From a virus (Duplodnaviria > Heunggongvirae > Uroviricota > Caudoviricetes): DNA of 64,000 nt. Below are positions 46,740 to 63,626 of the stretch, in pieces. Location of the stretch: IMG/VR virus record IMGVR_UViG_2724679236_000008. One strand, written 5' to 3'. Numbering within the stretch: position 1 is the first letter of the stretch; every line of letters starts with the position of its first letter. The notes below the pieces were generated by a model. The model searched no databases. It was not told the DNA's origin and saw only the letters and a list, made by a program, of their open reading frames with translations. The position numbers and the translations under genes are program-made.

Positions 46740-47291
46740 AAATGATGACGCAGGAAACTTTTTATAAAGCGTGGAAACAGCAACATCATAGATGATTGCA
46801 ACCTGCTTACGGGGGATGCCATTCTCCAGCAATCGACGCATTTGCTGCCATGTTTCTTCCGGGTATTTAGGTCTGCGGCCTCCTATTCGACCTTCTGCGC
46901 GAGCTGCATCAAGTCCAGCGCGTGTACGTTCAACGATAAGCTCGCGTTCCATTTCTGCCAGTGCCCCCATTACGTGAAAGAAAAAGCGCCCCATTGGTGT
47001 ACTGGTGTCGATGGAGTCAGTGAGACTCCGGAAGTTAATTCCTCTGTCACGTAGCTCTTCCACCAGCACAACCAAGTGACGCATGCTGCGCCCAAGGCGA
47101 TCTAACTTCCATACGATCAGGGTGTCACCTCTGGAAAGCATACGCAAAACCTTTTTTAGCCCTGGGCGTTCAGCCTTTTTGCCGCTCGCCTTATCCTCAA
47201 AAATTAGCTCACATCCTGCGCTTTCAAGAGCGTTTCGTTGTAAAGCAGTGTTTTGTTCATTTGTTGATACGCGTACATAGCCTATTAGCAT
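46731..47291 (-). CDS. cin: Cin/Gin/Hin-family serine DNA invertase (186 aa)
   Basis: MLIGYVRVSTNEQNTALQ (catalytic Ser), resolvase/invertase catalytic domain and C-terminal HTH; adjacent to invertible tail-fibre segment. Confidence 0.9.
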   Translation of the reverse strand: MLIGYVRVSTNEQNTALQRNALESAGCELIFEDKASGKKAERPGLKKVLRMLSRGDTLIVWKLDRLGRSMRHLVVLVEELRDRGINFRSLTDSIDTSTPMGRFFFHVMGALAEMERELIVERTRAGLDAARAEGRIGGRRPKYPEETWQQMRRLLENGIPRKQVAIIYDVAVSTLYKKFPASSFQS

Positions 47292-47419
47292 ATTTTCTGC
47301 TCACTATCGTTATTTATAGCAAGCTGCGGATTTTAATTAACAAAAAACCAGTATGTGTGGAAATCACAAAGTACATACCGTTTCCCAATGAGATTTAATT
47401 CACTATTGAGGAAATAGTT

Positions 47420-47701
47420 ATGTTTGATTTCACAATAATGCTCCTCTCCATCCTTGGCGGGGTGCATTCGTTTCTGAATGGGGTTCGTGAAAAACGTTAC
47501 GAAGCGTCATGCAGGCAATTGATGGCCGAGTGTATTGCTGCCGTACTTGCAGGCTTTATAGGCATGTATTTCGCGGAATATAAGGGTATGGATGAAAGTC
47601 TTCAGAATTGCGTGACTATTATTTGCAGCATCAATAACAGGCTCATTCTTGAAAAGTTACAAAGGATTATCGATTCGTACCTCAGTAGAAATGCCTCTTA
47701 A
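47420..47701 (+). CDS. small membrane protein, holin-like (93 aa)
   Basis: Two hydrophobic helices and charged C-terminus; precedes holin/antiholin-like pair. Confidence 0.4.
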   Translation: MFDFTIMLLSILGGVHSFLNGVREKRYEASCRQLMAECIAAVLAGFIGMYFAEYKGMDESLQNCVTIICSINNRLILEKLQRIIDSYLSRNAS

Positions 47702-47702
47702 G

Positions 47703-47727
47703 CAACAAATGACCGGTTGAGAAGTTA
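47703..47727 (+). promoter_or_regulatory. late-promoter-like motif CAACAAATGACcggttgAGAAGTTA
   Basis: Same AACAAATGAC core as 697 and 32123; 40 nt upstream of GTG 47769. Confidence 0.35.
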
Positions 47728-47768
47728 CTTTGCATACCATTACCTCCTGACAACGTAGGAGGGAACTT

Positions 47769-48098
47769 GTGCTTGACACACAGGAATTAGCTCCAGTTGC
47801 TATTGCGCTCCTGCTTTCAGTAATTGGTGGGATAGGCACGTTCCTGATGGATGTCCGAGACGGTCGCCAGTCTGGCAATTTGTTGGGATTGGTTACGGAG
47901 ATCTTTGTTGCAGTGACAGCTGGCGCGGTGGCGTACCTATTGGGGCAACACGAGGGCTGGGAGTTATCAATTACGTACTTAATGGTAACGATAGCCAGCA
48001 ATAACGGTCATGAGGTGATTTCAGGGATGAAACGAGTGAATATCGATAGCATTCTGAATGTTCTTACAAGTTTGGTGAAAAAGGGAGGCGGGAAATGA
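47769..48098 (+). CDS. holin candidate (LydA-position, 109 aa, GTG start)
   Basis: SD AGGAGG 8 nt before GTG; three hydrophobic segments; lysine-rich C-terminus KKGGGK. Confidence 0.5.
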   Translation: MLDTQELAPVAIALLLSVIGGIGTFLMDVRDGRQSGNLLGLVTEIFVAVTAGAVAYLLGQHEGWELSITYLMVTIASNNGHEVISGMKRVNIDSILNVLTSLVKKGGGK

Positions 48099-48538
48099 TT
48101 GGCTGGGGTGTATGCGCTCTTGCGGCAGCCTTAGCTGATCGCTATTTGCTAAAACGCAAGGACATCACGAATTTAGAGCTTGGTGATGTGGAAATTAAAC
48201 CGGGATTTATCCGGGTGCCGTTCAAATATCGGTCTAAATTCCCGTTTTTGCGCGGTGCAACGGTCAGATATTGGATCCGTGATGTTCAGAAGCCGACGAC
48301 AGTGATTGAAGGCGAACAACGTTGCCTGACGTCGGCTGAACAGGGCGAAAACAGTGAATGGTTGTACATACCCACTGAATATATGGGTAAAGGAGAACGA
48401 CTGTGGCATTTCAACGTCATGGTTACGCACGGCGACTCGTTCATTAACCCGTTGTATCGGATTTTCCCTGTTACTCAGCAAATCCGCAGAAGTTACGTAA
48501 TAAATCTCGCACAGGATGTGTCAGATGACGAAAAATAA
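48095..48538 (+). CDS. putative antiholin/lysis regulator (LydB-position, 147 aa)
   Basis: ATGA overlap with holin gene; soluble; assignment by position. Confidence 0.4.
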   Translation: MIGWGVCALAAALADRYLLKRKDITNLELGDVEIKPGFIRVPFKYRSKFPFLRGATVRYWIRDVQKPTTVIEGEQRCLTSAEQGENSEWLYIPTEYMGKGERLWHFNVMVTHGDSFINPLYRIFPVTQQIRRSYVINLAQDVSDDEK

Positions 48539-49127
48539 GTATGCAACGGTCGATTTTGACCAGGTTAATGAAAAGGGGCTGAAATCCCTTATCGCGGCGA
48601 TCAATAAAACCGGTGTTACGGTAATTGAGGTTGACTCCAGCAACCGCGCAACAACGAAAGATGGCGTTAAAGTTAAAACCGCAAAGCTGGTTCTTAACGA
48701 CGGACAAATTCTTGCCATACAGGTAAACGATACTGGTGATATATCGGCTGTGAAACTGAATGGAAAATCTATTCCTAACGCACAGTCGCCAGATATCAAG
48801 ACGCTTGGTACCGTCATGGGGCAAGCGGCCCGCAAAAACTCCGCGAAATTCCAGAAATCACTGATCGCCAAAGCGAAGCGTGTTGCCAATCCGGTAGACA
48901 AGAAACCAGCAGTTAAATCCAACTTTCAGCGCCTGCAAGAAGCAAAACAGCGGAATGCTCAGGTGGTTGCCGCTTATAAGTCCGCGCAGAATTCGGTGTC
49001 TTTCAATCAACAGCAGATCACTGATTTGCGGGCGAAGCTGGATAAGGAGACGGGCCGACTCAATAACGAAAAGGCACGGAATGGCGAACTCAAACGCCGT
49101 CTTAAGCAACTGAAAGCAGGAAATTAA
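48516..49127 (+). CDS. lysine-rich coiled-coil protein (Hdf-position, 203 aa)
   Basis: Overlaps upstream gene; precedes the DarA-like reading frame. Confidence 0.45.
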   Translation: MCQMTKNKYATVDFDQVNEKGLKSLIAAINKTGVTVIEVDSSNRATTKDGVKVKTAKLVLNDGQILAIQVNDTGDISAVKLNGKSIPNAQSPDIKTLGTVMGQAARKNSAKFQKSLIAKAKRVANPVDKKPAVKSNFQRLQEAKQRNAQVVAAYKSAQNSVSFNQQQITDLRAKLDKETGRLNNEKARNGELKRRLKQLKAGN

Positions 49128-49128
49128 C

Positions 49129-51047
49129 ATGGAACAGTTCAATATCAATAAAGGGGTGACGATCAAACCTGGGCTTGACGTGCTTCCCCCGCCAGTGACT
49201 GATGATGAATATCGCGCATTAATGGCCGGTGAGGACCGCTATCTGATGACGGAATCCAACACCCTGGAGGAAATCGAGGCTACGTTCTTCTATGACACGC
49301 CGATCCACTGGTGTGCTACGGATTTACTGGAGGCGATTAGTTCTACTCGTTTGCAGTTACACCGGACCATGCAGGCATTTGTCCGGGCATTGAACCAGAA
49401 GCTGAATGGTACCGGAATCTCTGCGGGGAGTGATAAAACGGGGATGTGGCCCAGAGCGGCGCGCGCGCGATCGGCGGCGCTGAAATTGGTCGGGCACGTA
49501 ACGTTAACGGGCTGCCGGTCCTGCCAGCCATTATTCCGCTCAGTGATGGTCAGACTATCAGCATTTTGTTTCATAGCCCGACAGCGGAAAACCGGATCAC
49601 CAATAGCGATACGCTGGTTGCTTTCCAGTTCTTACTGAATAAAAAAGACGTTACTCACACCGTTGCTCCGATGAGTGGACGTGATATGACGCTGGCGCAG
49701 GTCACCATGAAACTTGCCAACCTTGCAGAGAAAAACTCGGCAAAATTCCAGCGTGCGCAGAAGAAGAAAAAAGCCCTGGTTGATGAAATAACCCAACTAC
49801 AGGCTGACAGTGACCAGAAAGAGGATGCCATGAGCGACCTCGCGGATCAGGTGGCAGCGGTAGAAGGCCAGAAGGCAGATCTGGAGCAGAAAATTAACGC
49901 GGTTGCTTCGGAAGCGGATTCTCTTTATCAAGAAAATGAGCGTTTGCAGGCGGAGATTGAGCAGCTCAATCGCACTGGTGGGCGCGATACCATTGCTCCA
50001 ACGGGGATGACTGGTGGGCACTCTCGCGCGCTGACGGATCGCCTTGCCAGTATCAAAAATCGTATGCATATGGACGGGGAAGCGACGCTCAGTAATGGTG
50101 CATCAATGAAGCAATTCATTGGGGACGGCAAAGGGTATGTCCAGTTAACCGATCCGGATGGCAGCGTGTACATGATCAAGGCTAAATCCATACAGGGTGT
50201 GGACATGGCAGATGCGATCGGCAAGCTGTTTAAAGCCTATAAAGCGGGTAATGTATCGGAATATCTGGTCCAACCAGAAGAGCCTAAACCGGAAAACGTC
50301 GAACCTGAACCAGCGGAGGATACCGGTAGCTCTTCGCCTGAACCAGAAGTCTCTGTAGGTGCATATCGATATGCCCTGCAAATGCGTCCGGCGGCCCCAG
50401 GCGCGATACCTGAAGGTAACAAAGCAATTCTGCCGTGCCCTGATGAAGGTGACCCGTATTATGAATATGCGCGCTACGGCATTGTTACTTACGATACCCC
50501 GCTTTCTGATCAGCAAATGAGTGAGTACGACCTGAAGTTATTGCCTCGCGAGGATTCTTTCGACTTCCTGGCGAAGACACTTACTAATGGTCCGTTTGGC
50601 AAATATGCACAAAAAGCTCTGGAGCTGGCCACCAGCTCACCAGACGAGTTCCGCGTAATGCTGAAAACTCAGTTTCAAAAAACTTTCCCCAATATTGCGT
50701 TTCCGGGGGGCGCAGGCACCGAGAAAATGGTGCAGAGCATGATCAATGCATTGCAGGCCGAAGTCGGTGAGATTACTCAACCAGAATCGGCCCCGGAACA
50801 GCATGATGAAAAGGTTAGCGAAGCAGATGCAGAGGCTAATAAAGCCATTGAATATCTCAATAACGTGATGGATATGCAAAGCACTGACATGGCGGAGATC
50901 CGCAACGCCAGGGGCAATGTCAGGGAAGCGATTGCTGCCCTTCAGGCTGCCGGACGTTTTGATGAAAACGAAGAGCTGGTTAACGGCGCAGCTCGCCACC
51001 TGGCTGATCTGCTGGTAGCAATCCAGAAAGCGGGAGTAGCGGCATGA
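49129..51047 (+). pseudogene. DarA-like head/antirestriction protein gene interrupted by a frameshift near 49435-49470 (or sequencing error)
   Basis: Frame 1 ORF 49129-49638 and frame 0 ORF 49446-51047 together span 1919 bp, the size I recall for intact darA; junction lies in aaaacgggg / gcgcgcgcg runs. Confidence 0.5.
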
Positions 51048-51430
51048 CACTATCAGCTATTGAGTTAATGGACCTCAGCGATAAGTTGGATGCTCTGATG
51101 TCCAAAGCTGCTACCGCGAGTGGCATGGAGTTGCTGGATATCAGCGATGAAATTGACCAGATCATGCAACAGATGGGGTACGGCGCGTCCGGCGGCGGTA
51201 GTGGCGAGGAAAAACAACCTTCAGTACATGATGGTGTGCCAAAACTGGTTGCTGATTTCCTGGCTGATAAATTCGTCGATCAGAGCACCGATGCATTTAT
51301 CGGCACCTTGCAGGACTTGAGTCAATATGTTGGCACATACATCGACCTGGACCAGGTTAAACAGCACACGGCGGCATGGATAGCCGCCAACATTAAAGAG
51401 GCTTCAGGTGTTCGCAGCAACTCTACATGA
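51044..51430 (+). CDS. small acidic protein (DdrA-position, 128 aa)
   Basis: ATGA overlap with preceding frame; followed by a strong terminator. Confidence 0.45.
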   Translation: MTLSAIELMDLSDKLDALMSKAATASGMELLDISDEIDQIMQQMGYGASGGGSGEEKQPSVHDGVPKLVADFLADKFVDQSTDAFIGTLQDLSQYVGTYIDLDQVKQHTAAWIAANIKEASGVRSNST

Positions 51431-51491
51431 GCTGTAGTTTTCGAAGATTCTCACAAGTTCATTTCGCGTAGGTATTTATTTAACCATTAAA

Positions 51492-51529
51492 GCCGAATGC
51501 GGCGGGCACACCACATTCGGCAATTTTTT
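51492..51529. terminator. rho-independent terminator between Dar-type operon and convergent gldA
   Basis: GCCGAATG-(14 nt loop)-CATTCGGC followed by AATTTTTTG. Confidence 0.6.
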
Positions 51530-51563
51530 GAAAACTATCAATGAATTAAATAATCAGAGGGGC

Positions 51564-52667
51564 TTATTCCCACTCTTGCAGGAAACGCTGACCGTACTGG
51601 TCGGCTACCAGCAGTGCAGCATAAACCTGATCTGGCGTTGCGCCGCCAGGCATGTTGTGGATGGTTTCACCTTCTGCACATGCCGCTTCTGCGACAATCC
51701 GCATTTTCGCCGGGATATCTTCTTTAATATCCAGTTGTGCCAGGGTAATTGGCAGGCCGACAGCATGGCACAGCGCAGCTACGGTTTCGATTTCTTCAAC
51801 TGGTGCGTTTTCCAGAACCAGTTGCGTCAGCGTACCGAATGCCACTTTCTCACCGTGATAATAGTGATGCGCATCCGGAATGGCCGTCAGGCCATTGTGC
51901 ACCGCGTGCGCCGCCGCCAGGCCGCCGCTTTCAAAGCCCACGCCGCTCAAATAGGTGTTAGCTTCAATCACACGTTCCAGCGCCGGAGTCACCACATGCT
52001 GTTCAGCGGCAAGCATCGCTTTTTCGCCTTCTTCCAGCAGGGTGTTGTAGCACAGTTCAGCCAGAGCCAGTGCTGCCTGAGTACATTTACCGCCCGCCAT
52101 CGTGGTTGCGCCGCTGCGGGAACAGGCACGTGCTTCAAACCAGGTTGCCAACGCATCGCCAATACCCGCCGCTAACAGACGTGCAGGTGCGCCAGCAACA
52201 ATTTTGGTATCCACAATGACGCGTTCCGGGTTGTTTGGCAGCATCAGATAACGTTCAAACTCACCATCATCGGTGTAGATAACGGAAAGGGCGCTGCAAG
52301 GTGCGTCGGTTGAGGCAATGGTTGGGGCAACTGCAACAGGAACGCCCATAAAGTGTGCCAGTGCTTTGGCTGTATCGAGGGTTTTACCTCCGCCGATTCC
52401 CAGAATTGCGCTACACTGAGCATTCTCTGCAATACCCCGCAGACGATCGATTTCATTTTGCGAACATTCACCGCCGAACGGGGCAATTTCTACCTCTATC
52501 CCAGCATCTTTAAAACTTTTCTCAATATTAGTTTGAGCAAAACCTAACACAAATTTGTCACCTACCACCAACCAATGTTCTGCCAGCGGTTTCAGGTATT
52601 CACCCAGGCGATTAATGACATCTGCGCCTTGGATGTATTTACCCGGTGATTGAATGATGCGGTCCAT
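51564..52667 (-). CDS. gldA: glycerol dehydrogenase GldA (iron-containing alcohol dehydrogenase family, 367 aa), host-like
   Basis: Full-length, essentially colinear with E. coli GldA as I recall it ([30 protein letters not shown]...GIGGGKTLD...[11 protein letters not shown]); own SD AAAGGAG. Confidence 0.9.
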
Positions 52668-52738
52668 AATTGCTCCTTTAGAGATGAGTTATGCTAAATG
52701 TTTTGTTATTCCCGGATGACCTTCTGTATATATCTTAA

Positions 52739-52757
52739 GTCAACATTATAAGTTGAC
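52739..52757. promoter_or_regulatory. perfect palindrome GTCAAC-ATTATAA-GTTGAC in the gldA upstream region
   Basis: 19-bp dyad, 70 nt upstream of gldA start. Confidence 0.3.
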
Positions 52758-52969
52758 GCCAATATTCCGTAGAAGAGATGTTACTTCGCGAGCAGTATGA
52801 CTCCATAGGTTTCTGAGACGTTACTTTGCATATGATATTGCTGAGGCAAATACATTCAATGCCGCATTTTGTGAGATTTTAAGCCAATCTACATCACCAT
52901 TAGGTAAGAGTATCTTTTTTTGGTGGTGATGGCGCAATGTATCAGTGGACAGCATAAGGTGTAACAGGG

Positions 52970-54658
52970 ATGTGTTTGAACGATCATACAGTTATGGCCA
53001 CCAGCAGCGGCTACATCGGTGTGGCACCGTATACCCGCTTGCTATTACATCAGGCATCCGGCATCAAAGATATTATTCACCTGATCAGGCTGCTTTCCCG
53101 TACAGATCCCCAGGATGAACAGCTTGTTCAAGTGCTTGCGCATTTTGTCCGAATGCCTGTTGCCGACGTGAAAAAATGGTGCCGATTATTCGGTATCAGC
53201 AATTCGTTACTTCGCGGATTGTTAAATCACGCATCCTCCCTTGGGCGCGACGGATTTGATGAGATAGCGCAGGCGATAAAAAACGGAGATATGCCACCAG
53301 CTATTGACTGGTTTTCCATTCGCCCAACCAGGGTGAAAGCATTCCTTAGTGCGGCGCAATCAGCATCACCATTGGCAGAAATGGTTCAGAGGTTGTCGCT
53401 CATATTCACAGATCATACCGCGTTCGGTGATCTGGCTCTGGACGAGATGAAAGAAGCCTCCATTCAGTGGGCCGATCAACAAAATGAGGTTAACTCAGAC
53501 TTCTTGCCAGCATTCAGGAAGGCCGTTAGTAAAGCGGATGATGCCCGTGGAATTCTGAAGGCATTTAAGGCATTGCAAAGTCGGGTTAATAAACATGTCG
53601 GTGATATCGATGGGGTAACGGCGGAAGGCAGGGATATCCTTAAAGAGCACGGCATAACGCCAGAGTTTATTGATGAGATCAGGACGGATATGCAGCGTGA
53701 GGTCGTATCGTCTCTGCAAATCGTAGCCAGGGCGTTGGCGGATGCTAATCCGAAGAGTGCGGCCATTGTTAACCGGGTTATTGGTGATATTGAAGCATCT
53801 GAGGGCATGGGGGCACTGAAACTCTTCCTTTCGCGAGCGTTTAATCCTAACGGCAATATTCTCCCTGGCATTATTGGTGAGGCTAAAAAGTATGTCAGCG
53901 AAGAAGAACTTGAGCATCTTGACCAACTACTTAAGCGATTCTCATATAACCCGCAGACACGCTGGCAAATGAATCAGCGAAGTATGGGGTCGGTCCACGA
54001 GAAAGTGTTATCTGCCATGAACAGTGCGATCGCCAACTCATCCGTATCTGAAGAAAAAGCTCTTGAGTGGGCCGACTCTTTTATCACGGAAGAAGTGGAA
54101 GAAGCCCGCGCTGGACAGAATGGTGGGATAGACCTGCGCAAGGAACTTGCTGATATTTATCGCCTGACCGGCGGGAAAATATCGACCTTATCAAAGGTAG
54201 TTCACCACCAGGGAAGGGCATATGCAAATCTAAATGGTGTTGTTGCTGTCAATTTGAACGATGAAAATGCAAGTGCACTGTGGCACGAGCTGGGTCATCA
54301 TCTTGAGTACAGTAACCCTGGTTTGTTAGAGAAAGCCCGGTCATTCCTGAAGGCCAATGTTGAAGGGGATAAACCATCTTTCGTTAATATCGGTGGGCGT
54401 GGCAAGCCTGAATGGTGCTTCAGATCTCAATTGAGTAATATTTATATGGCGAAGGTATACCCGCCAGTCTCAGTAAGTAACACCGGGAAAATTCGGCAGA
54501 AATCACCGACTATTTCCAAAACGTCAGCAACGGAAGTATTCTCTATGGCTCTTCAGTTGTATCATGACAAAGAGGCCGCTGCCGCATCACTGATGAATGG
54601 TGACGGATTGCTGGAACTGTTATTAGGTGTGGCAAAGGAGCTAAATAATGCAGATTAA
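52970..54658 (+). CDS. HExxH-motif protein, putative zinc metallopeptidase-like effector (562 aa)
   Basis: WHELGHHLEY at about residue 455; otherwise no recognisable family; occupies the position after the DdrA-like gene. Confidence 0.55.
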   Translation: MCLNDHTVMATSSGYIGVAPYTRLLLHQASGIKDIIHLIRLLSRTDPQDEQLVQVLAHFVRMPVADVKKWCRLFGISNSLLRGLLNHASSLGRDGFDEIAQAIKNGDMPPAIDWFSIRPTRVKAFLSAAQSASPLAEMVQRLSLIFTDHTAFGDLALDEMKEASIQWADQQNEVNSDFLPAFRKAVSKADDARGILKAFKALQSRVNKHVGDIDGVTAEGRDILKEHGITPEFIDEIRTDMQREVVSSLQIVARALADANPKSAAIVNRVIGDIEASEGMGALKLFLSRAFNPNGNILPGIIGEAKKYVSEEELEHLDQLLKRFSYNPQTRWQMNQRSMGSVHEKVLSAMNSAIANSSVSEEKALEWADSFITEEVEEARAGQNGGIDLRKELADIYRLTGGKISTLSKVVHHQGRAYANLNGVVAVNLNDENASALWHELGHHLEYSNPGLLEKARSFLKANVEGDKPSFVNIGGRGKPEWCFRSQLSNIYMAKVYPPVSVSNTGKIRQKSPTISKTSATEVFSMALQLYHDKEAAAASLMNGDGLLELLLGVAKELNNAD

Positions 54659-54968
54659 AATCGCAGCGCCATTAGGCGGAGATGCCATTATCGAATTTGA
54701 TGATAATGAAGAAGTTTCCGGGCGTTTAAGCATTATCTCCGGTGACATTACCGAGGACATGATCGCTGAAGCCATAGCTGGGGCAAATCCCAATAGCTAT
54801 ATGGGATTCGTTAACACCCTTGATGCTCCCGCAAGTGATGTTCTCCGAACGCTGCATCTTTACGCTGGCTGGTTTGTTGATTGGCCAGCAGTAGATGGTG
54901 GCGATGAGGATGATGATGACGATGAAGAGGGTTTTAGTGATGAAGCAGTCAACCAACTCTTGTATTGA
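54648..54968 (+). CDS. hyper-acidic small protein (106 aa), coupled to the HExxH protein
   Basis: 11-nt overlap with upstream gene; C-terminus DGGDEDDDDDEEGFSDEAVNQLLY; about 25 acidic versus 5 basic residues. Confidence 0.5.
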   Translation: MQIKIAAPLGGDAIIEFDDNEEVSGRLSIISGDITEDMIAEAIAGANPNSYMGFVNTLDAPASDVLRTLHLYAGWFVDWPAVDGGDEDDDDDEEGFSDEAVNQLLY

Positions 54969-55171
54969 CAGGAATTGGCATAGAATTGATTGTTCAAATT
55001 TCATCCATCACATAGACGACTTCATGTTATTTGCCTGATAATTATGGCTTTAATAACCCATGTATATCTTTTGGGTTATATTCTTATCTTTAACAAGGTT
55101 ATAAGAGCGACAATGATAAATTTATCACTATCGCTCTTATAACTCTTTGTTAGCTATAGCTTTAAACAAAT

Positions 55172-55459
55172 TTAGTTTTGAGGCAATGCAACAAAAGTCA
55201 GCTCTTGATCTTTGATTAATGCTTTTGTTTGTTTGGATGTAATTCCCACTTTAGTTTTTACATCATTGTGGAGCTTCTTATACGCTTTTATTTCATCTGC
55301 TGTATATCGGAAGCCATTTGCACTGTTACTGGACAGTTGAAGTGCGATTACGTCATCACTGACACCCGCATCGCTTAGCTTAGCTATGCGGGTAATAGTG
55401 TGGCCTGCGCGAGTGTTTGGGGTGGATATTTTGTCTAAGAAATTGTTCAGTTTTGCCAT
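55172..55459 (-). CDS. hypothetical protein (95 aa)
   Basis: ORF track; flanked by AT-rich intergenic DNA. Confidence 0.45.
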   Translation of the reverse strand: MAKLNNFLDKISTPNTRAGHTITRIAKLSDAGVSDDVIALQLSSNSANGFRYTADEIKAYKKLHNDVKTKVGITSKQTKALIKDQELTFVALPQN

Positions 55460-55677
55460 TGTTTACAACCTCTTACTTGAGTTTATTGCAAGTAGAATTG
55501 CTACTATTTTTTTGCCTCAACGAATCACAATGTACTGGAATAAGAAACTATGAGCAATACTTACGCTTTGCGAATACAGAAGATGAATAATCAACTTATT
55601 ACTAAAATGTTAATAATATTATTCTGTTACATAGTGTTCGCTATAACAATCGGGAGTTGAATGCTAATTCAATAAAT

Positions 55678-55707
55678 AAAGAACCCGCCAATTGGCGGGT
55701 TCTTTTT
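55678..55707. terminator. rho-independent terminator (bidirectional) after the 262-aa gene
   Basis: AAAGAACCCGCC-AATT-GGCGGGTTCTTTTT perfect hairpin with flanking A/T runs; overlaps stop codon of 55706-56494. Confidence 0.65.
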
Positions 55708-56494
55708 AATCACTTTCCACTTCTTCCGTGGTGTTTTCTTGCAGTTCTGTTAATGCAGCACGACACAGGTTCCGGGCCTTGGCTATAGCCACACTTTTTA
55801 CCTCATCCGTCATTGTGCAGGTAATGTACTGATCGAGTTCTTCAGCTCGGATGATGCTTTTCCCAATCATAAACTCTATTTGCCAGAGCAGATCGGCATC
55901 CATCGTCAGTATTTCAGCCTGGCCTTCTGGGCCTGCGGGGAAGCAAACATAAGACTGTTTGCCCAGGCCGATAACTCGACAACTTGCTTCAAGAATTGCG
56001 CGCTTGAGATCTGACTTTGTAACGGAAACAGGTTGGTTTTCACCTGTGATTACACCGTTGACATGGACGTGGAAGGGCATGTAGCTTGAAATACGCTCTA
56101 CTTTCCACACGCCAGCAAGCGATCCTTCATGCAGCACAATGGGGGTAACCGCGAGCTTCATCTCACCATATAACTGCTGGCAGATAGCTGGGTTGCTGAA
56201 TACATCCAAAGGCTCACATTCAAACAGCGGCGCAATCTGCATGAGGTCCATCATGGTCATCCCTGGGGTACGAGCAGTAATGAATTTGCGCATGCCAGTA
56301 TCCATTGTTCGCCAGATAGCCACACCATGTTTTTTGCTCACTTCTTCAGTAAAGCCAAGGTGGCACATGATGGTTTTTTCGATAGCCAGATCGGAGATAG
56401 AAACCTTTTCGCCAGGTACACCATCATTATTGATGGTTACTTCGACGTTCTGGCCATTACGCAGGCGGTATTGAATTGCTTTAGTATTTTTCAC
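55706..56494 (-). CDS. hypothetical protein (262 aa)
   Basis: ORF track; 7-nt gap to upstream gene on the same strand. Confidence 0.5.
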   Translation of the reverse strand: MKNTKAIQYRLRNGQNVEVTINNDGVPGEKVSISDLAIEKTIMCHLGFTEEVSKKHGVAIWRTMDTGMRKFITARTPGMTMMDLMQIAPLFECEPLDVFSNPAICQQLYGEMKLAVTPIVLHEGSLAGVWKVERISSYMPFHVHVNGVITGENQPVSVTKSDLKRAILEASCRVIGLGKQSYVCFPAGPEGQAEILTMDADLLWQIEFMIGKSIIRAEELDQYITCTMTDEVKSVAIAKARNLCRAALTELQENTTEEVESD

Positions 56495-56500
56495 GTTAAA

Positions 56501-57202
56501 TTACTCCACTACAAACCAGTCACATGCCAGCAGGTCACCTACAGAAGGCATCCATGGAACAACTACACCTTGTGCATTTTTCAAAACGAAATGCGCACCA
56601 TAAGGAGCAAGAGGAGAGTCGAAATTGATTTCAAGCTCTCCGTTTGCGGCATGTTTTATAGGGGTTAGTCTTGAAGCACCCTGTTTGTCAGGAACCAGCC
56701 AGCAGAATTGGTTTTCGCCGTTCCACCCGCGTCGAGCAACTTTCTTGCCATCCTTCAGCCACATCAGCGCGTCAGAAAAGTCGGCTGCTTCAAGGTCGAT
56801 TTCTTCTTGCTGGGGGGTGATGCCACCAGCAGAAATAGTTACGCTCCCGGTAAGATTAATACTCATTCCTTTGCCATCAGTAATAATGACTGTTGTTTCA
56901 TTTTCGGAGATGTCATTAATTCGACTAAAGCCATCTTTAAATGTTTTTTCTGATAAATAGGACAAATATCCGTCCTCATAAACGACCAAATACCCGCCAC
57001 TTTGTGGTCGGTGTTCTTGTAGAAACATTGCATCTACATGAACCACGTCCTCTTTTGGTTCAACGATTTGAATGATGCCAAAAAGTGGCTCATCAATTAC
57101 TCCGCAAATAGAAACATTTTTTATTTTCGATGCGCTAACGATTTTGTGGGCTTTGTATTTTGGAAGGGTCTTAAAAAGCTCTTTCGTTGCTATGCTAGTC
57201 AT
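56501..57202 (-). CDS. two-domain protein with C-terminal DUF2829 (Tad2-like) domain (233 aa from ATG 57202; ORF-track start 57370)
   Basis: C-terminus FSDALMWLKDGKKVARRGWNGENQFCWLV...VVVPWMPSVGDLLACDWFVVE fits the DUF2829 pattern; SD GAGGAAAG before ATG 57202. Confidence 0.5.
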   Translation of the reverse strand: MTSIATKELFKTLPKYKAHKIVSASKIKNVSICGVIDEPLFGIIQIVEPKEDVVHVDAMFLQEHRPQSGGYLVVYEDGYLSYLSEKTFKDGFSRINDISENETTVIITDGKGMSINLTGSVTISAGGITPQQEEIDLEAADFSDALMWLKDGKKVARRGWNGENQFCWLVPDKQGASRLTPIKHAANGELEINFDSPLAPYGAHFVLKNAQGVVVPWMPSVGDLLACDWFVVE

Positions 57203-57399
57203 AGTCTTTCCTCTGCTTAAAACCTGATGTATTGCGCCTTCAGGTGGGTCAAGAATGTTTTCCCACCAGCGAAAGCAATATCTCGGGGTGTTCTTTTCGT
57301 GAAAAGCGCGTGCCATTGCCAACTTTGGCGTTTGTTTGCGAGTTCGTGCTTTTGTCGGCGTCTGGACCACCGCTTTTCTTTCAGTCGTTTTTTACACAT

Positions 57400-61703: not shown

Positions 61704-61904
61704 ATGAAAAAGCTATATGCGGGAGTGTTTCGCTGTTCAAGTGTCAGCGAAATATTGAAATACATTAGGGCAATAACATCTCATAGAGCGCCGATTAGAT
61801 ACGGCGTGGAAAAGGTGGAAGGCAAAAGCTATGACCGGCTGCGTTGGGAGGCGAATCAAAAGGCGATAGATTTGCTGAATTTCTTGGTGTTAATCGTGTA
61901 TTAA
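61704..61904 (+). CDS. small hypothetical protein (66 aa)
   Basis: SD AAGGATT before ATG; lies at the transition from phage genes to the AT-rich fimbrial region. Confidence 0.35.
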   Translation: MKKLYAGVFRCSSVSEILKYIRAITSHRAPIRYGVEKVEGKSYDRLRWEANQKAIDLLNFLVLIVY

Positions 61905-62270
61905 CCGCACAGAGCAGTGCCTTGCGAGAGTAACAGTTCAGCACGAATATGACGCGCAGTTTTTTCACTGTTACTCATAGCTGAACTTGATCCCATCAGA
62001 GCGCCACCGCAGCGCTAGAGGTCTTTTGTTCCGAGAAAAATGTTCAAGAAGTAATGCATTCATTACATTCCATTTTTTCAATTTTATATTGGCCAGAACG
62101 TTATTCCTTGTTTTGGCTGGATAATAGAAAGTCAAAATACCGCAATATGCGTATTTCATAACTTGACCAAATATTAACAGACTAATAATTAATGTTCTAG
62201 TTGTGTGTGGAAAGGGTTAATTACCTCCCTTATTATTTATGATAATAATGAATATTTGTTTAACTTATAT

Positions 62271-62291
62271 GTTTGTGTTTGTGTTTGTGTT
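62271..62291. repeat. hexanucleotide tandem repeat (GTTTGT)x3.5
   Basis: gtttgtgtttgtgtttgtgtt in AT-rich regulatory DNA upstream of the fimbrial regulator gene. Confidence 0.5.
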
Positions 62292-62625
62292 GAAGTGGTC
62301 GCAGATTTAATTATCGATGATAAGGTTTATATGTTTGGGTTTTTTATAAAAAATCTAAACAATATTCTGCGTTTAAAAAAAACGATAAAAGATCGATTTT
62401 ATTGGTTGCTACATCATTTTATCTTGATGATAACCGTATTGTTTGGTGTTTTGTGCTGGTTTTGTTTTATGGATTGGTTTTTTGTTTTGGTTGTTGTCTG
62501 TGTATTGGCGAAAAAGATCGTTAATAAGGTATTGAACAGAATTTGATGCTGAATAAAATAGCGCACAAATTTCATATGACGTATTTCTCTTGGTTTTGAA
62601 AGTAGGAAAACAGTAGGGGAATATA

Positions 62626-62913
62626 ATGTCTAACTATAGTAGTATTGATTCTTCTAACTATCGGTGGGACGGTAACTCTTTTATTATAGGAGGGGGCTCT
62701 CTCTCAAGTGAGCAGTTTGATTTGTTAGTTGAGCTTTCTTCAATTCACAGTAAAAAGGTTATTTTGGCCATGCACGACCATCTTGTTCTGGGAGATTCGC
62801 GTAAGGTTGTGTGCGAAAGGTATGGGGTTAATGCTGGTTATTTGAGTGTATGTATCGGGCGCCTACTTAGAGTTGAAAGAAACGTGTCAAAACTAGTTAG
62901 ATTTTATTGCTGA
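62626..62913 (+). CDS. PapB/FanA-family fimbrial operon transcriptional regulator (95 aa)
   Basis: LVELSSIHSKKVILAMHDHLVLGDSRKVVCERYGVNAGYLSVCIGRLLRVERNV resembles the PapB-family core. Confidence 0.65.
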   Translation: MSNYSSIDSSNYRWDGNSFIIGGGSLSSEQFDLLVELSSIHSKKVILAMHDHLVLGDSRKVVCERYGVNAGYLSVCIGRLLRVERNVSKLVRFYC

Positions 62914-63094
62914 TGACAATGATAAACGTAATCTTAGTATAACGAATTAATGTTGTACGTATATTTCTTGGGTGTATATAGATGGGGTGGCGTTATTTTC
63001 TTTTTTTTAGGGAGAAAGTAGCGACACATCATTATATGTGTCCTGTAATTTCATACTCGATTAATTGAGTTCAGTAATCACGGAGTTTTATAAC

Positions 63095-63604
63095 ATGAAA
63101 AAATTAATGGTTGCTTCTGCAATTGCAATGATCATGGCAGCAGGTTCTGCAATGGCGTCCCAGGGAGATGTTAAGTTCTTTGGTAACGTAACTGAAGTTA
63201 CCTGTGATGTAACTCCGGAAGTTGGTGGTACTGTTACTGATCTGGTTCAGCTGGGTACTGTAGAAAAAGGCGGTACTGGAGATGAAGTTGATCTGGTAAT
63301 TAAAGCAACTAGTGCTGCAGGAGGTTGTGCTCAGCTGACAGGAAAAACAGCATCCATTGCATGGAGTGGCAATTTGACTACGGATGGTATTGGCGCTCAG
63401 GGAGGGCTGGCGCAAGATGCTTATGTTATTCTGAAACCTGCAAATGGTAATGATGATACTGCTATCACTTCTGCTGATTATGTAGCTGATTTTGATGCAA
63501 CAAAAGCTACTACGGATGGTTTTAAATTTACCGCTCAGCTGAAAGGTGGTAATACTCCAGGTGACTTCCAGTCTGCGGCGGCTTACGCAGTTACTTACAA
63601 GTAA
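63095..63604 (+). CDS. chaperone-usher fimbrial major subunit (pilin), 169-aa precursor
   Basis: Signal peptide MKKLMVASAIAMIMAAGSAMA, conserved Cys pair (TCDV...GGCAQ), C-terminal beta-strand ending VTYK; SD ACGGAG. Confidence 0.7.
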   Translation: MKKLMVASAIAMIMAAGSAMASQGDVKFFGNVTEVTCDVTPEVGGTVTDLVQLGTVEKGGTGDEVDLVIKATSAAGGCAQLTGKTASIAWSGNLTTDGIGAQGGLAQDAYVILKPANGNDDTAITSADYVADFDATKATTDGFKFTAQLKGGNTPGDFQSAAAYAVTYK

Positions 63605-63626
63605 TTCCTGAACTTTATCTCCTTTT

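Follow-up and report, generated by a model that had tools for sequence, protein, structure and literature searches.

The dar operon of bacteriophage P1 serves as a defence against restriction, and P1 mutants in darA or darB are restricted although their hxr gene is intact. The protection works solely in cis, for the DNA that is packaged. The P1 protein DdrB is a polyvalent protein that combines an N-terminal DdrB-like ParB domain with a C-terminal zincin-like metallopeptidase (MPTase) domain (Iyer et al. 2017, PMC5512222); earlier work cited in that paper found the protein to be packaged and to be processed to 76 kDa. As a head-internal protein it has been detected in P1 virions by proteomics, with a coverage of 59.5% (PMC9024508). 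The P1 record lists DdrB as P1_gp022, with 995 amino acids (aa) and the GenBank note "possible metallopeptidase", and Hxr as P1_gp021 (102 aa); both ddrB and hxr are non-essential. Here, we analyse a counterpart of these two genes at positions 52970 to 54968 of a stretch of 64,000 nucleotides (nt), the IMG/VR virus record IMGVR_UViG_2724679236_000008, which in its full length we call the window. Our explanation, to which we assign a probability of about 0.8, is that the pair consists of a DdrB without ParB domain and of Hxr, a protein of unassigned role, that both are probably expressed late, and that Hxr is neither a repressor nor a DNA mimic of the Ocr type.

An initial annotation, made from the sequence alone, had described two overlapping open reading frames (ORFs) of 562 and 106 aa, and both are present (Table 1). 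The window matches a plasmid of Escherichia albertii, the IncY phage-plasmid pEA4_97 (97,069 bp), at 100% identity. In a megablast search, 19 P1-type phages aligned to the window at 97-98% identity, and the aligned parts carry the annotations DdrB and Hxr. Window positions 46763-51402 are colinear with the P1 genes lydC-lydA-lydB-hdf-darA-ddrA and positions 53012-54923 with P1 hxr and the 3' 1.6 kb of ddrB, and the gene order after hdf-darA-ddrA is identical in the window and in P1. Judged by this homology, the two genes are ddrB and hxr, which close the dar operon of the P1-like phage-plasmid pEA4_97. The initial annotation had placed the pair where P1-type phages encode packaged antirestriction proteins, and the P1 homology bears this out. 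Both genes are already known from P1, and the idea of a metallopeptidase is an existing annotation. What is new is a natural, apparently functional ParB-less ddrB allele that has its own late-promoter-like element and resides in a darB-less phage-plasmid which carries metabolic and fimbrial cargo. The apparent mis-annotation of Hxr is a new point as well.

The 562-aa protein matches the P1 DdrB orthologue group phrog_2299 at positions 445-995 of 995 (E = 0), and 532 of 548 residues are identical to residues 448-995 of P1 DdrB (about 97% amino-acid identity). The DdrB-like ParB domain (PF18763), which occupies residues 36-167 of P1 DdrB, was not found in the window ORF by a Pfam search. The short protein begins with MCLNDHTVMATS, its P1 counterpart with MSLSDQVVMATS. 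The junction of the in-frame deletion lies at about 53006/53007, and P1 homology picks up again at 53012, which corresponds to position 6001 of the P1 sequence L001 and to DdrB residue 448. Since the ddrA stop, the ribosome-binding region and the first 12 codons of ddrB align to native P1 sequence, the 562-aa protein is a domain-deleted DdrB and not a fragment; for the same reason we rejected the idea that the ORF is a 5'-truncated ddrB read from a chance ATG in inserted DNA. As far as can be told from this alignment, the short DdrB keeps the native start codon and the C-terminal approximately 548 residues, that is, a helical region and a gluzincin-type peptidase domain.

The native ddrB start region and an 11-nt overlap between the stop of ddrB and the start of hxr are also found in P1. 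On the other hand, the window differs from the P1 dar operon in the deletion of the ParB module, in the presence of a gldA cassette and in an extra late-promoter-like element between ddrA and ddrB; unlike P1, the host plasmid lacks darB. The arrangement of insertion and deletion is common to at least 16 plasmids of PLSDB, all of them from E. albertii. In the whole sequences of pEA4_97 and NZ_CP030784.2, only the first 62 codons of darB are left, the rest being replaced by a Pef/F18-type fimbrial operon. Because darB has been lost in these two fully checked plasmids, the short DdrB and Hxr are kept there without DarB and without the ParB module.

The translation confirms the earlier statement that the 562-aa protein contains a single WHELGHHLEY motif: there is only one HExxH, namely HELGH at residues 439-443. 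The remark that no other family signature can be read agrees with searches of Pfam, NCBIfam and PADLOC, which give no family for either protein. An alignment of nine sequences, with identities as low as 22%, shows no variation at H439, E440, H443, H444, E446 and T521-E522. The initial annotation had allowed for the HExxH being incidental; this is not what we see, since the motif residues are invariant in distant homologues (22-25% identity). A structure predicted with AlphaFold2 (AF2) has a mean predicted local distance difference test score (pLDDT) of 72, with values mostly above 80 from residue 180, and displays, in the order helix, strands, helix with HELGH and further helices, the zincin core as in Iyer et al. 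In this model HELGH sits in a helix (435-448) that comes after strands 409-412 and 424-427, and the invariant E522 is found at the start of helix 523-529. E522 is a candidate for the third zinc ligand of the modelled site, as is the invariant E446.

Searches of PDB chains with the sequences of the 562-aa and 106-aa proteins found nothing. The same is true of a peptidase-domain profile, which gave no match to PDB chains or to a Pfam profile, and neither DdrB nor its homologues match Peptidase_M78 (PF06114). By its motif and predicted fold the peptidase fits the class of MPTases of polyvalent proteins, to which it is assigned without a profile match to a named family. With the members of this class, such as the C-terminal domain of ArdC or the virion RNA polymerase of N4 (Iyer et al. 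2017), it shares the HExxH helix after a small beta-sheet, the kept Glu in a later helix and the location in a protein that is delivered with the DNA of a mobile element. In structure, it may also be close to the gluzincins that resemble PPEP and anthrax lethal factor (M34). Unlike the other polyvalent proteins, the short form has no further effector domain that the peptidase could release, so that the autoprocessing role proposed for P1 DdrB would not be its whole function. Related domains (about 25% identity) were found by tblastn in 70 further phage records, mainly of large Vibrio phages, and one of these records is annotated as a reprolysin-like metallopeptidase. In short, the peptidase reading of the initial annotation stands, as the motif is invariant, whereas the protein is not a new one: it is P1 DdrB minus its ParB module, and thus already predicted to be a metallopeptidase.

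How is the pair expressed? P1 homology within ddrA extends to window position 51402 (L001 4640), and the insertion that follows has no match in P1. Using a scan built for late promoters, we found an element upstream of ddrB that matches LPdar (window 47718-47740) at 20 of 23 bases and is kept in two sister plasmids (L007 and L008). A generic scan for sigma-70 promoters and terminators gave nothing convincing upstream of ddrB. In its loose form, the late-promoter motif has nine matches in the window as compared to 2.2 in shuffled sequences, and three other matches fall on the annotated P1 late promoters LPdar, LPlyz and LPpro. The hairpin downstream of gldA has a folding energy of -18.1 kcal/mol (z -4.6) on the plus strand and of -23.3 kcal/mol (z -5.5) on the minus strand; it is a possible bidirectional terminator which would halt read-through from LPdar before ddrB. 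Since this hairpin may block the read-through, a separate promoter would matter for ddrB-hxr. Going by these sequence elements, ddrB-hxr probably has a promoter of its own, an LPdar-like and Lpa-dependent candidate past the gldA cassette, which would drive its transcription late in infection, and hxr would be translated from a strong Shine-Dalgarno sequence inside the 3' end of ddrB, across the 11-nt overlap. The short DdrB would then still be made and would enter the head as an internal protein like P1 DdrB, and its peptidase might have itself, other injected proteins or proteins of the host as substrates.

The gene gldA of the insertion is 88-89% identical to the chromosomal gldA of E. coli, and its flanks within the cassette do not resemble E. 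coli DNA. A gldA of chromosomal type, with flanks of its own, is carried as cargo inside the late dar operon, and at least 16 plasmids of E. albertii have this feature in common. The same ddrA/ddrB junction holds a minus-strand gene similar to the hicB antitoxin in a different P1-like lineage (L009 985-1978), which suggests that this junction is a hot spot for cargo in P1-like phage-plasmids.

The second protein of the pair, Hxr, is 93% identical to Hxr of P1. Its ATG is at 54648 and the TAA of ddrB at 54656-54658, and it is preceded by the Shine-Dalgarno sequence AAGGAG with a spacing of 7 nt; the overlap of stop and start proposed initially is thus real and amounts to 11 nt. The same holds for the composition of the protein, which had been described as having about 25 acidic residues and a poly-Asp/Glu tail: we count exactly 25 (16 Asp and 9 Glu) and 3 basic residues, which results in a net charge of -22 and an isoelectric point (pI) of about 4.05, and the tail contains the tract DEDDDDDEE. 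Among the ORFs of at least 90 aa in the window, Hxr is the most acidic, with a charge of -0.21 per residue as opposed to -0.14 for the next one. All 11 members of the family that we examined are acidic (net charge -15 to -22) and end in an acidic tail and a hydrophobic-Val-Asn/Tyr terminus, and this acidity persists in homologues with an identity of 35-45%. When 5.8 billion and 1.8 billion proteins were searched, the matches were limited to proteins of approximately 100 aa from P1-like elements and one tandem duplicate. We were not able to find any Pfam match or, at E up to 1, any match to a helix-turn-helix (HTH) profile. In the AF2 model, four strands and two helices form a small globular alpha/beta domain, which is followed by the disordered tail.

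The length of the poly-Asp tract varies between alleles (5 to 8 Asp, or DDDDDEE; 54897-54926; P0001, P0003 and P0012), and this variation is consistent with slippage in a GAT/GAC repeat. Furthermore, the last approximately 10 residues of the P1 protein and of the window allele differ, the tail being DEDDDDDEEGFSDEAVNQLLY in the window and DEDDDDDFGDHVDQIVY in P1.

A homologue of Hxr directly follows DdrB in every P1-like lineage examined. The two genes overlap by 11 nt in P1 and in E. albertii and also in L009-L012 (with a long form of 1010 aa in L009), and by 14-17 nt in the Klebsiella clade; in L013 they are adjacent. The DdrB peptidase domain lies next to Hxr in all phage records that have Hxr (20 of 20), and 70 other records carry a related peptidase domain without Hxr. 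Thus, Hxr appears to depend on the C-terminal module of DdrB, both with and without the ParB module. From the strict pairing and the adjacency in all 20 records we infer that Hxr is a specific partner of DdrB. It could be an immunity-like inhibitor of the zincin, its chaperone or a cofactor in packaging; that Hxr is a dedicated partner of one of these kinds is a tentative proposal, derived from the conserved synteny.

Several points weigh against a working pair of this kind. RefSeq gives no coding sequence for the ddrB locus tag in pEA4_97 and in NZ_CP030784.2, probably as a consequence of a pseudogene call, and a -1 frameshift in a run of five G interrupts the darA of this record. According to P1 work cited in PMC12810830, DarA is required for packaging the other Dar proteins, and hence DdrB may not be packaged in this isolate. 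For Hxr, we found no experiment in the literature that we searched, and the evidence for its interaction with DdrB is conserved synteny. Potentially, the short ddrB could be a decaying pseudogene remnant, left after the gldA insertion and the deletion, in a dar system that is being dismantled with hxr as a passenger. The missing coding sequences and the frameshifted darA would fit such a decay, as would the reduction of darB to 62 codons and a frameshift in ulx of pEA4_97, and the hairpin with its T-run after ddrA could sever the pair from LPdar. On the other hand, the deletion is in frame and has spared the native start and ribosome-binding site, and the LPdar-like promoter upstream of ddrB has been kept. 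The open frame of 566 codons is intact, with an unchanged N-terminus, in all three sister plasmids checked, and GenBank CP045689 annotates a 425-aa "ddrB domain protein" at the short ddrB. The short form is under purifying selection, the ratio of nonsynonymous to synonymous substitution rates (dN/dS) being 0.10-0.14 among short-form alleles versus 0.15 between long forms, although these values among plasmids may be blurred by recombination with long-form P1 relatives. Moreover, short forms have arisen independently elsewhere: P1-like plasmids of Klebsiella, Enterobacter and Cronobacter have natural DdrB-C proteins of 558 aa (34-36% identity) in which residue 11 aligns with residue 450 of P1 DdrB, that is, at the same boundary, and a further P1-like clade (L013) has a form of 530 aa. 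These stand-alone proteins of 530-558 aa, which are paired with an Hxr of approximately 100 aa (for example P0037 and phage JK004), resemble the window pair in the missing ParB module, the N-terminal boundary, the invariant HExxHHxE/TE motif and the acidic downstream partner, but they are only 25-36% identical to the E. albertii form. They look like long-established short forms, and the E. albertii allele looks like a recent derivative of a P1-type long form. Taking both sides into account, we regard decay as improbable; the short form, as judged from its sequence, is apparently functional.

As to Hxr, the initial annotation had proposed a DNA mimic similar to Ocr or ArdA, that is, a packaged or injected protein that counters type I restriction enzymes. 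Like Ocr (T7 gp0.3), ArdA and T4 IPI* (a small packaged anti-restriction protein), Hxr is a small and very acidic phage protein in an anti-restriction context: a net charge of -22 in 106 aa, the acidity kept in its homologues and the location in an operon for packaged antirestriction proteins are all in line with mimicry. The list of proteins detected in P1 virions does not include it (PMC9024508), but a protein with only 3 Lys/Arg might easily be missed in tryptic mass spectrometry. The support for a mimic, however, ends with the charge. There is no fold match of Hxr to Ocr, ArdA or any solved structure, and the AF2 model shows a small globular domain with a disordered tail instead of an elongated DNA-like surface. 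In contrast to Ocr and ArdA, Hxr is the product of a late gene strictly tied to a peptidase gene; it was never found without the DdrB peptidase module, which points to a role linked to DdrB. In addition, Dar protection works in cis, whereas mimics of the Ocr type act in trans, and since P1 dar mutants are restricted with hxr intact, Hxr alone would give no protection against EcoK, EcoB or EcoA. A DNA mimic is therefore hardly a probable explanation for Hxr, and a far smaller chance still has to be given to an Xre-type repressor, perhaps in a pair with the DdrB peptidase similar to ImmA/ImmR. The repressor goes back to a note in the P1 record, in which some 58 residues are given as 28% identical to Xre, and the label "homolog of Xre" has been copied in many phage records; besides, an HExxH protease next to a small regulator is reminiscent of ImmA/ImmR. 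Yet Hxr matches neither HTH_3 nor any other HTH family of Pfam at E up to 1, a phmmer search of 1.8 billion representatives yields only Hxr-like proteins of approximately 100 aa and repetitive chance matches, and a fold of four strands and two helices is not a five-helix HTH. A pI of about 4 with 3 basic residues and the location in a late structural operon also argue against a repressor, and unlike ImmA/IrrE (M78), which is paired with ImmR, DdrB has no PF06114 match and a partner that is not an HTH protein. The label "putative repressor" is almost certainly wrong, and we infer that Hxr is neither a DNA mimic of the Ocr type nor a transcriptional repressor.

The surroundings of the pair vary as well. 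Compared to P1, darA (49129-51047) has a deletion of one base in the G5 run at 49436-49444 (near 49440), so that the reading frame is lost near codon 104. The sisters NZ_CP030784.2 and CP045689.1 have an intact darA; in this record the gene is either a true pseudogene or affected by a sequencing error in the homopolymer. Downstream of hxr (54969-57370), isaB and IS1 of P1 are absent from the window, and in their place we find a 95-aa ORF (55172-55459, minus strand), an IsaA-like ORF of 262 aa and a DUF2829 protein of 289 aa. A further candidate for a bidirectional terminator is an inverted repeat at about 55101-55141. The replacement of darB and ulx starts at about 61890 (window 61704-64000; L015 2498-11800) and consists of DNA with a low GC content (38.5%) that encodes a PapB/FocB regulator, a fimbrial subunit, a PefC usher, a chaperone and a DsbA-like protein; it is also present in NZ_CP030784.2. 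The frameshifted ulx of pEA4_97 is a remnant. Another deletion variant of the dar operon is seen on 74 contigs, where residues 1 to about 340 of DarA are fused to the C-terminal approximately 350 residues of DdrB including the peptidase (P0029-P0031, 693/654 aa; P0094 cluster, 639 aa); the sources call these fusions "DarA". Outside the window, pEA4_97 carries the type I restriction genes HsdS and HsdR by phd/doc (L017 10975-15406, which is pEA4_97 70974-75405), and so the plasmid encodes a type I system alongside its reduced dar system.

Table 1. Features of the ddrB-hxr locus, in coordinates of the window (L001, P1 sequence).
Feature	Position	Strand	Description
ddrA	51044..51430	+	128 aa; last codons replaced by the left end of the gldA cassette (P1 DdrA 121 aa)
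Cargo insertion	51403..52950		1548 bp, exactly between P1 L001 4640 and 4641, at the ddrA/ddrB junction; carries gldA
Hairpin downstream of gldA	51492..51529		RNA fold; T-run after it on the + strand
gldA	51564..52667	-	367 aa, glycerol / L-1,2-propanediol dehydrogenase; Pfam Fe-ADH; annotated gldA in pEA4_97
Late-promoter-like element	52814..52836	+	TGAGACGTTACTTTGCATATGAT; 133 nt upstream of the ddrB ATG
ddrA stop, ddrB ribosome-binding region and first 12 ddrB codons	52944..53006	+	native; aligns to P1 L001 4635-4696
Short-form ddrB	52970..54658	+	562 aa; P1 DdrB minus residues ~13-446 (DdrB-ParB module)
Zincin-like metallopeptidase (MPTase) domain	53975..54655	+	residues ~336-562; HELGH at 54284-54298
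hxr	54648..54968	+	106 aa; acidic alpha/beta protein with a disordered poly-acidic tail at residues ~84-106 (54897-54965); phrog_2292

For the known P1 genes themselves these findings are mostly ordinary, and they should be of use to those who work on the Dar system. The window offers a natural DdrB that has lost its ParB domain, is under purifying selection, has a late-promoter-like element of its own and is found in plasmids without darB. Its retention without ParB module and without DarB implies that the peptidase module would do more than free the ParB domain or aid DarB into the capsid. The ddrA/ddrB junction takes up cargo (gldA here, hicB elsewhere), and cargo also replaces darB in the form of the fimbrial operon. 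Hxr, which many records carry as a "putative repressor", is a conserved acidic protein that goes together with the DdrB peptidase module, probably as its partner or not far from that role. One may go further and speculate, as an unlikely extension, that Hxr founds a family of hyper-acidic phage proteins of approximately 100 aa which form a two-part unit with the DdrB peptidase module, independent of the ParB domain and of DarB. In such a unit, Hxr would be either an immunity-like plug that silences the injected zincin until delivery, or a co-packaged acidic decoy, mimicking DNA or the tail of a single-stranded DNA-binding protein, against a host defence other than EcoK/EcoB. If this were true, P1-like phages would have the ddrB-hxr pair, and not the ParB domain, at the core of their "DdrB" function.

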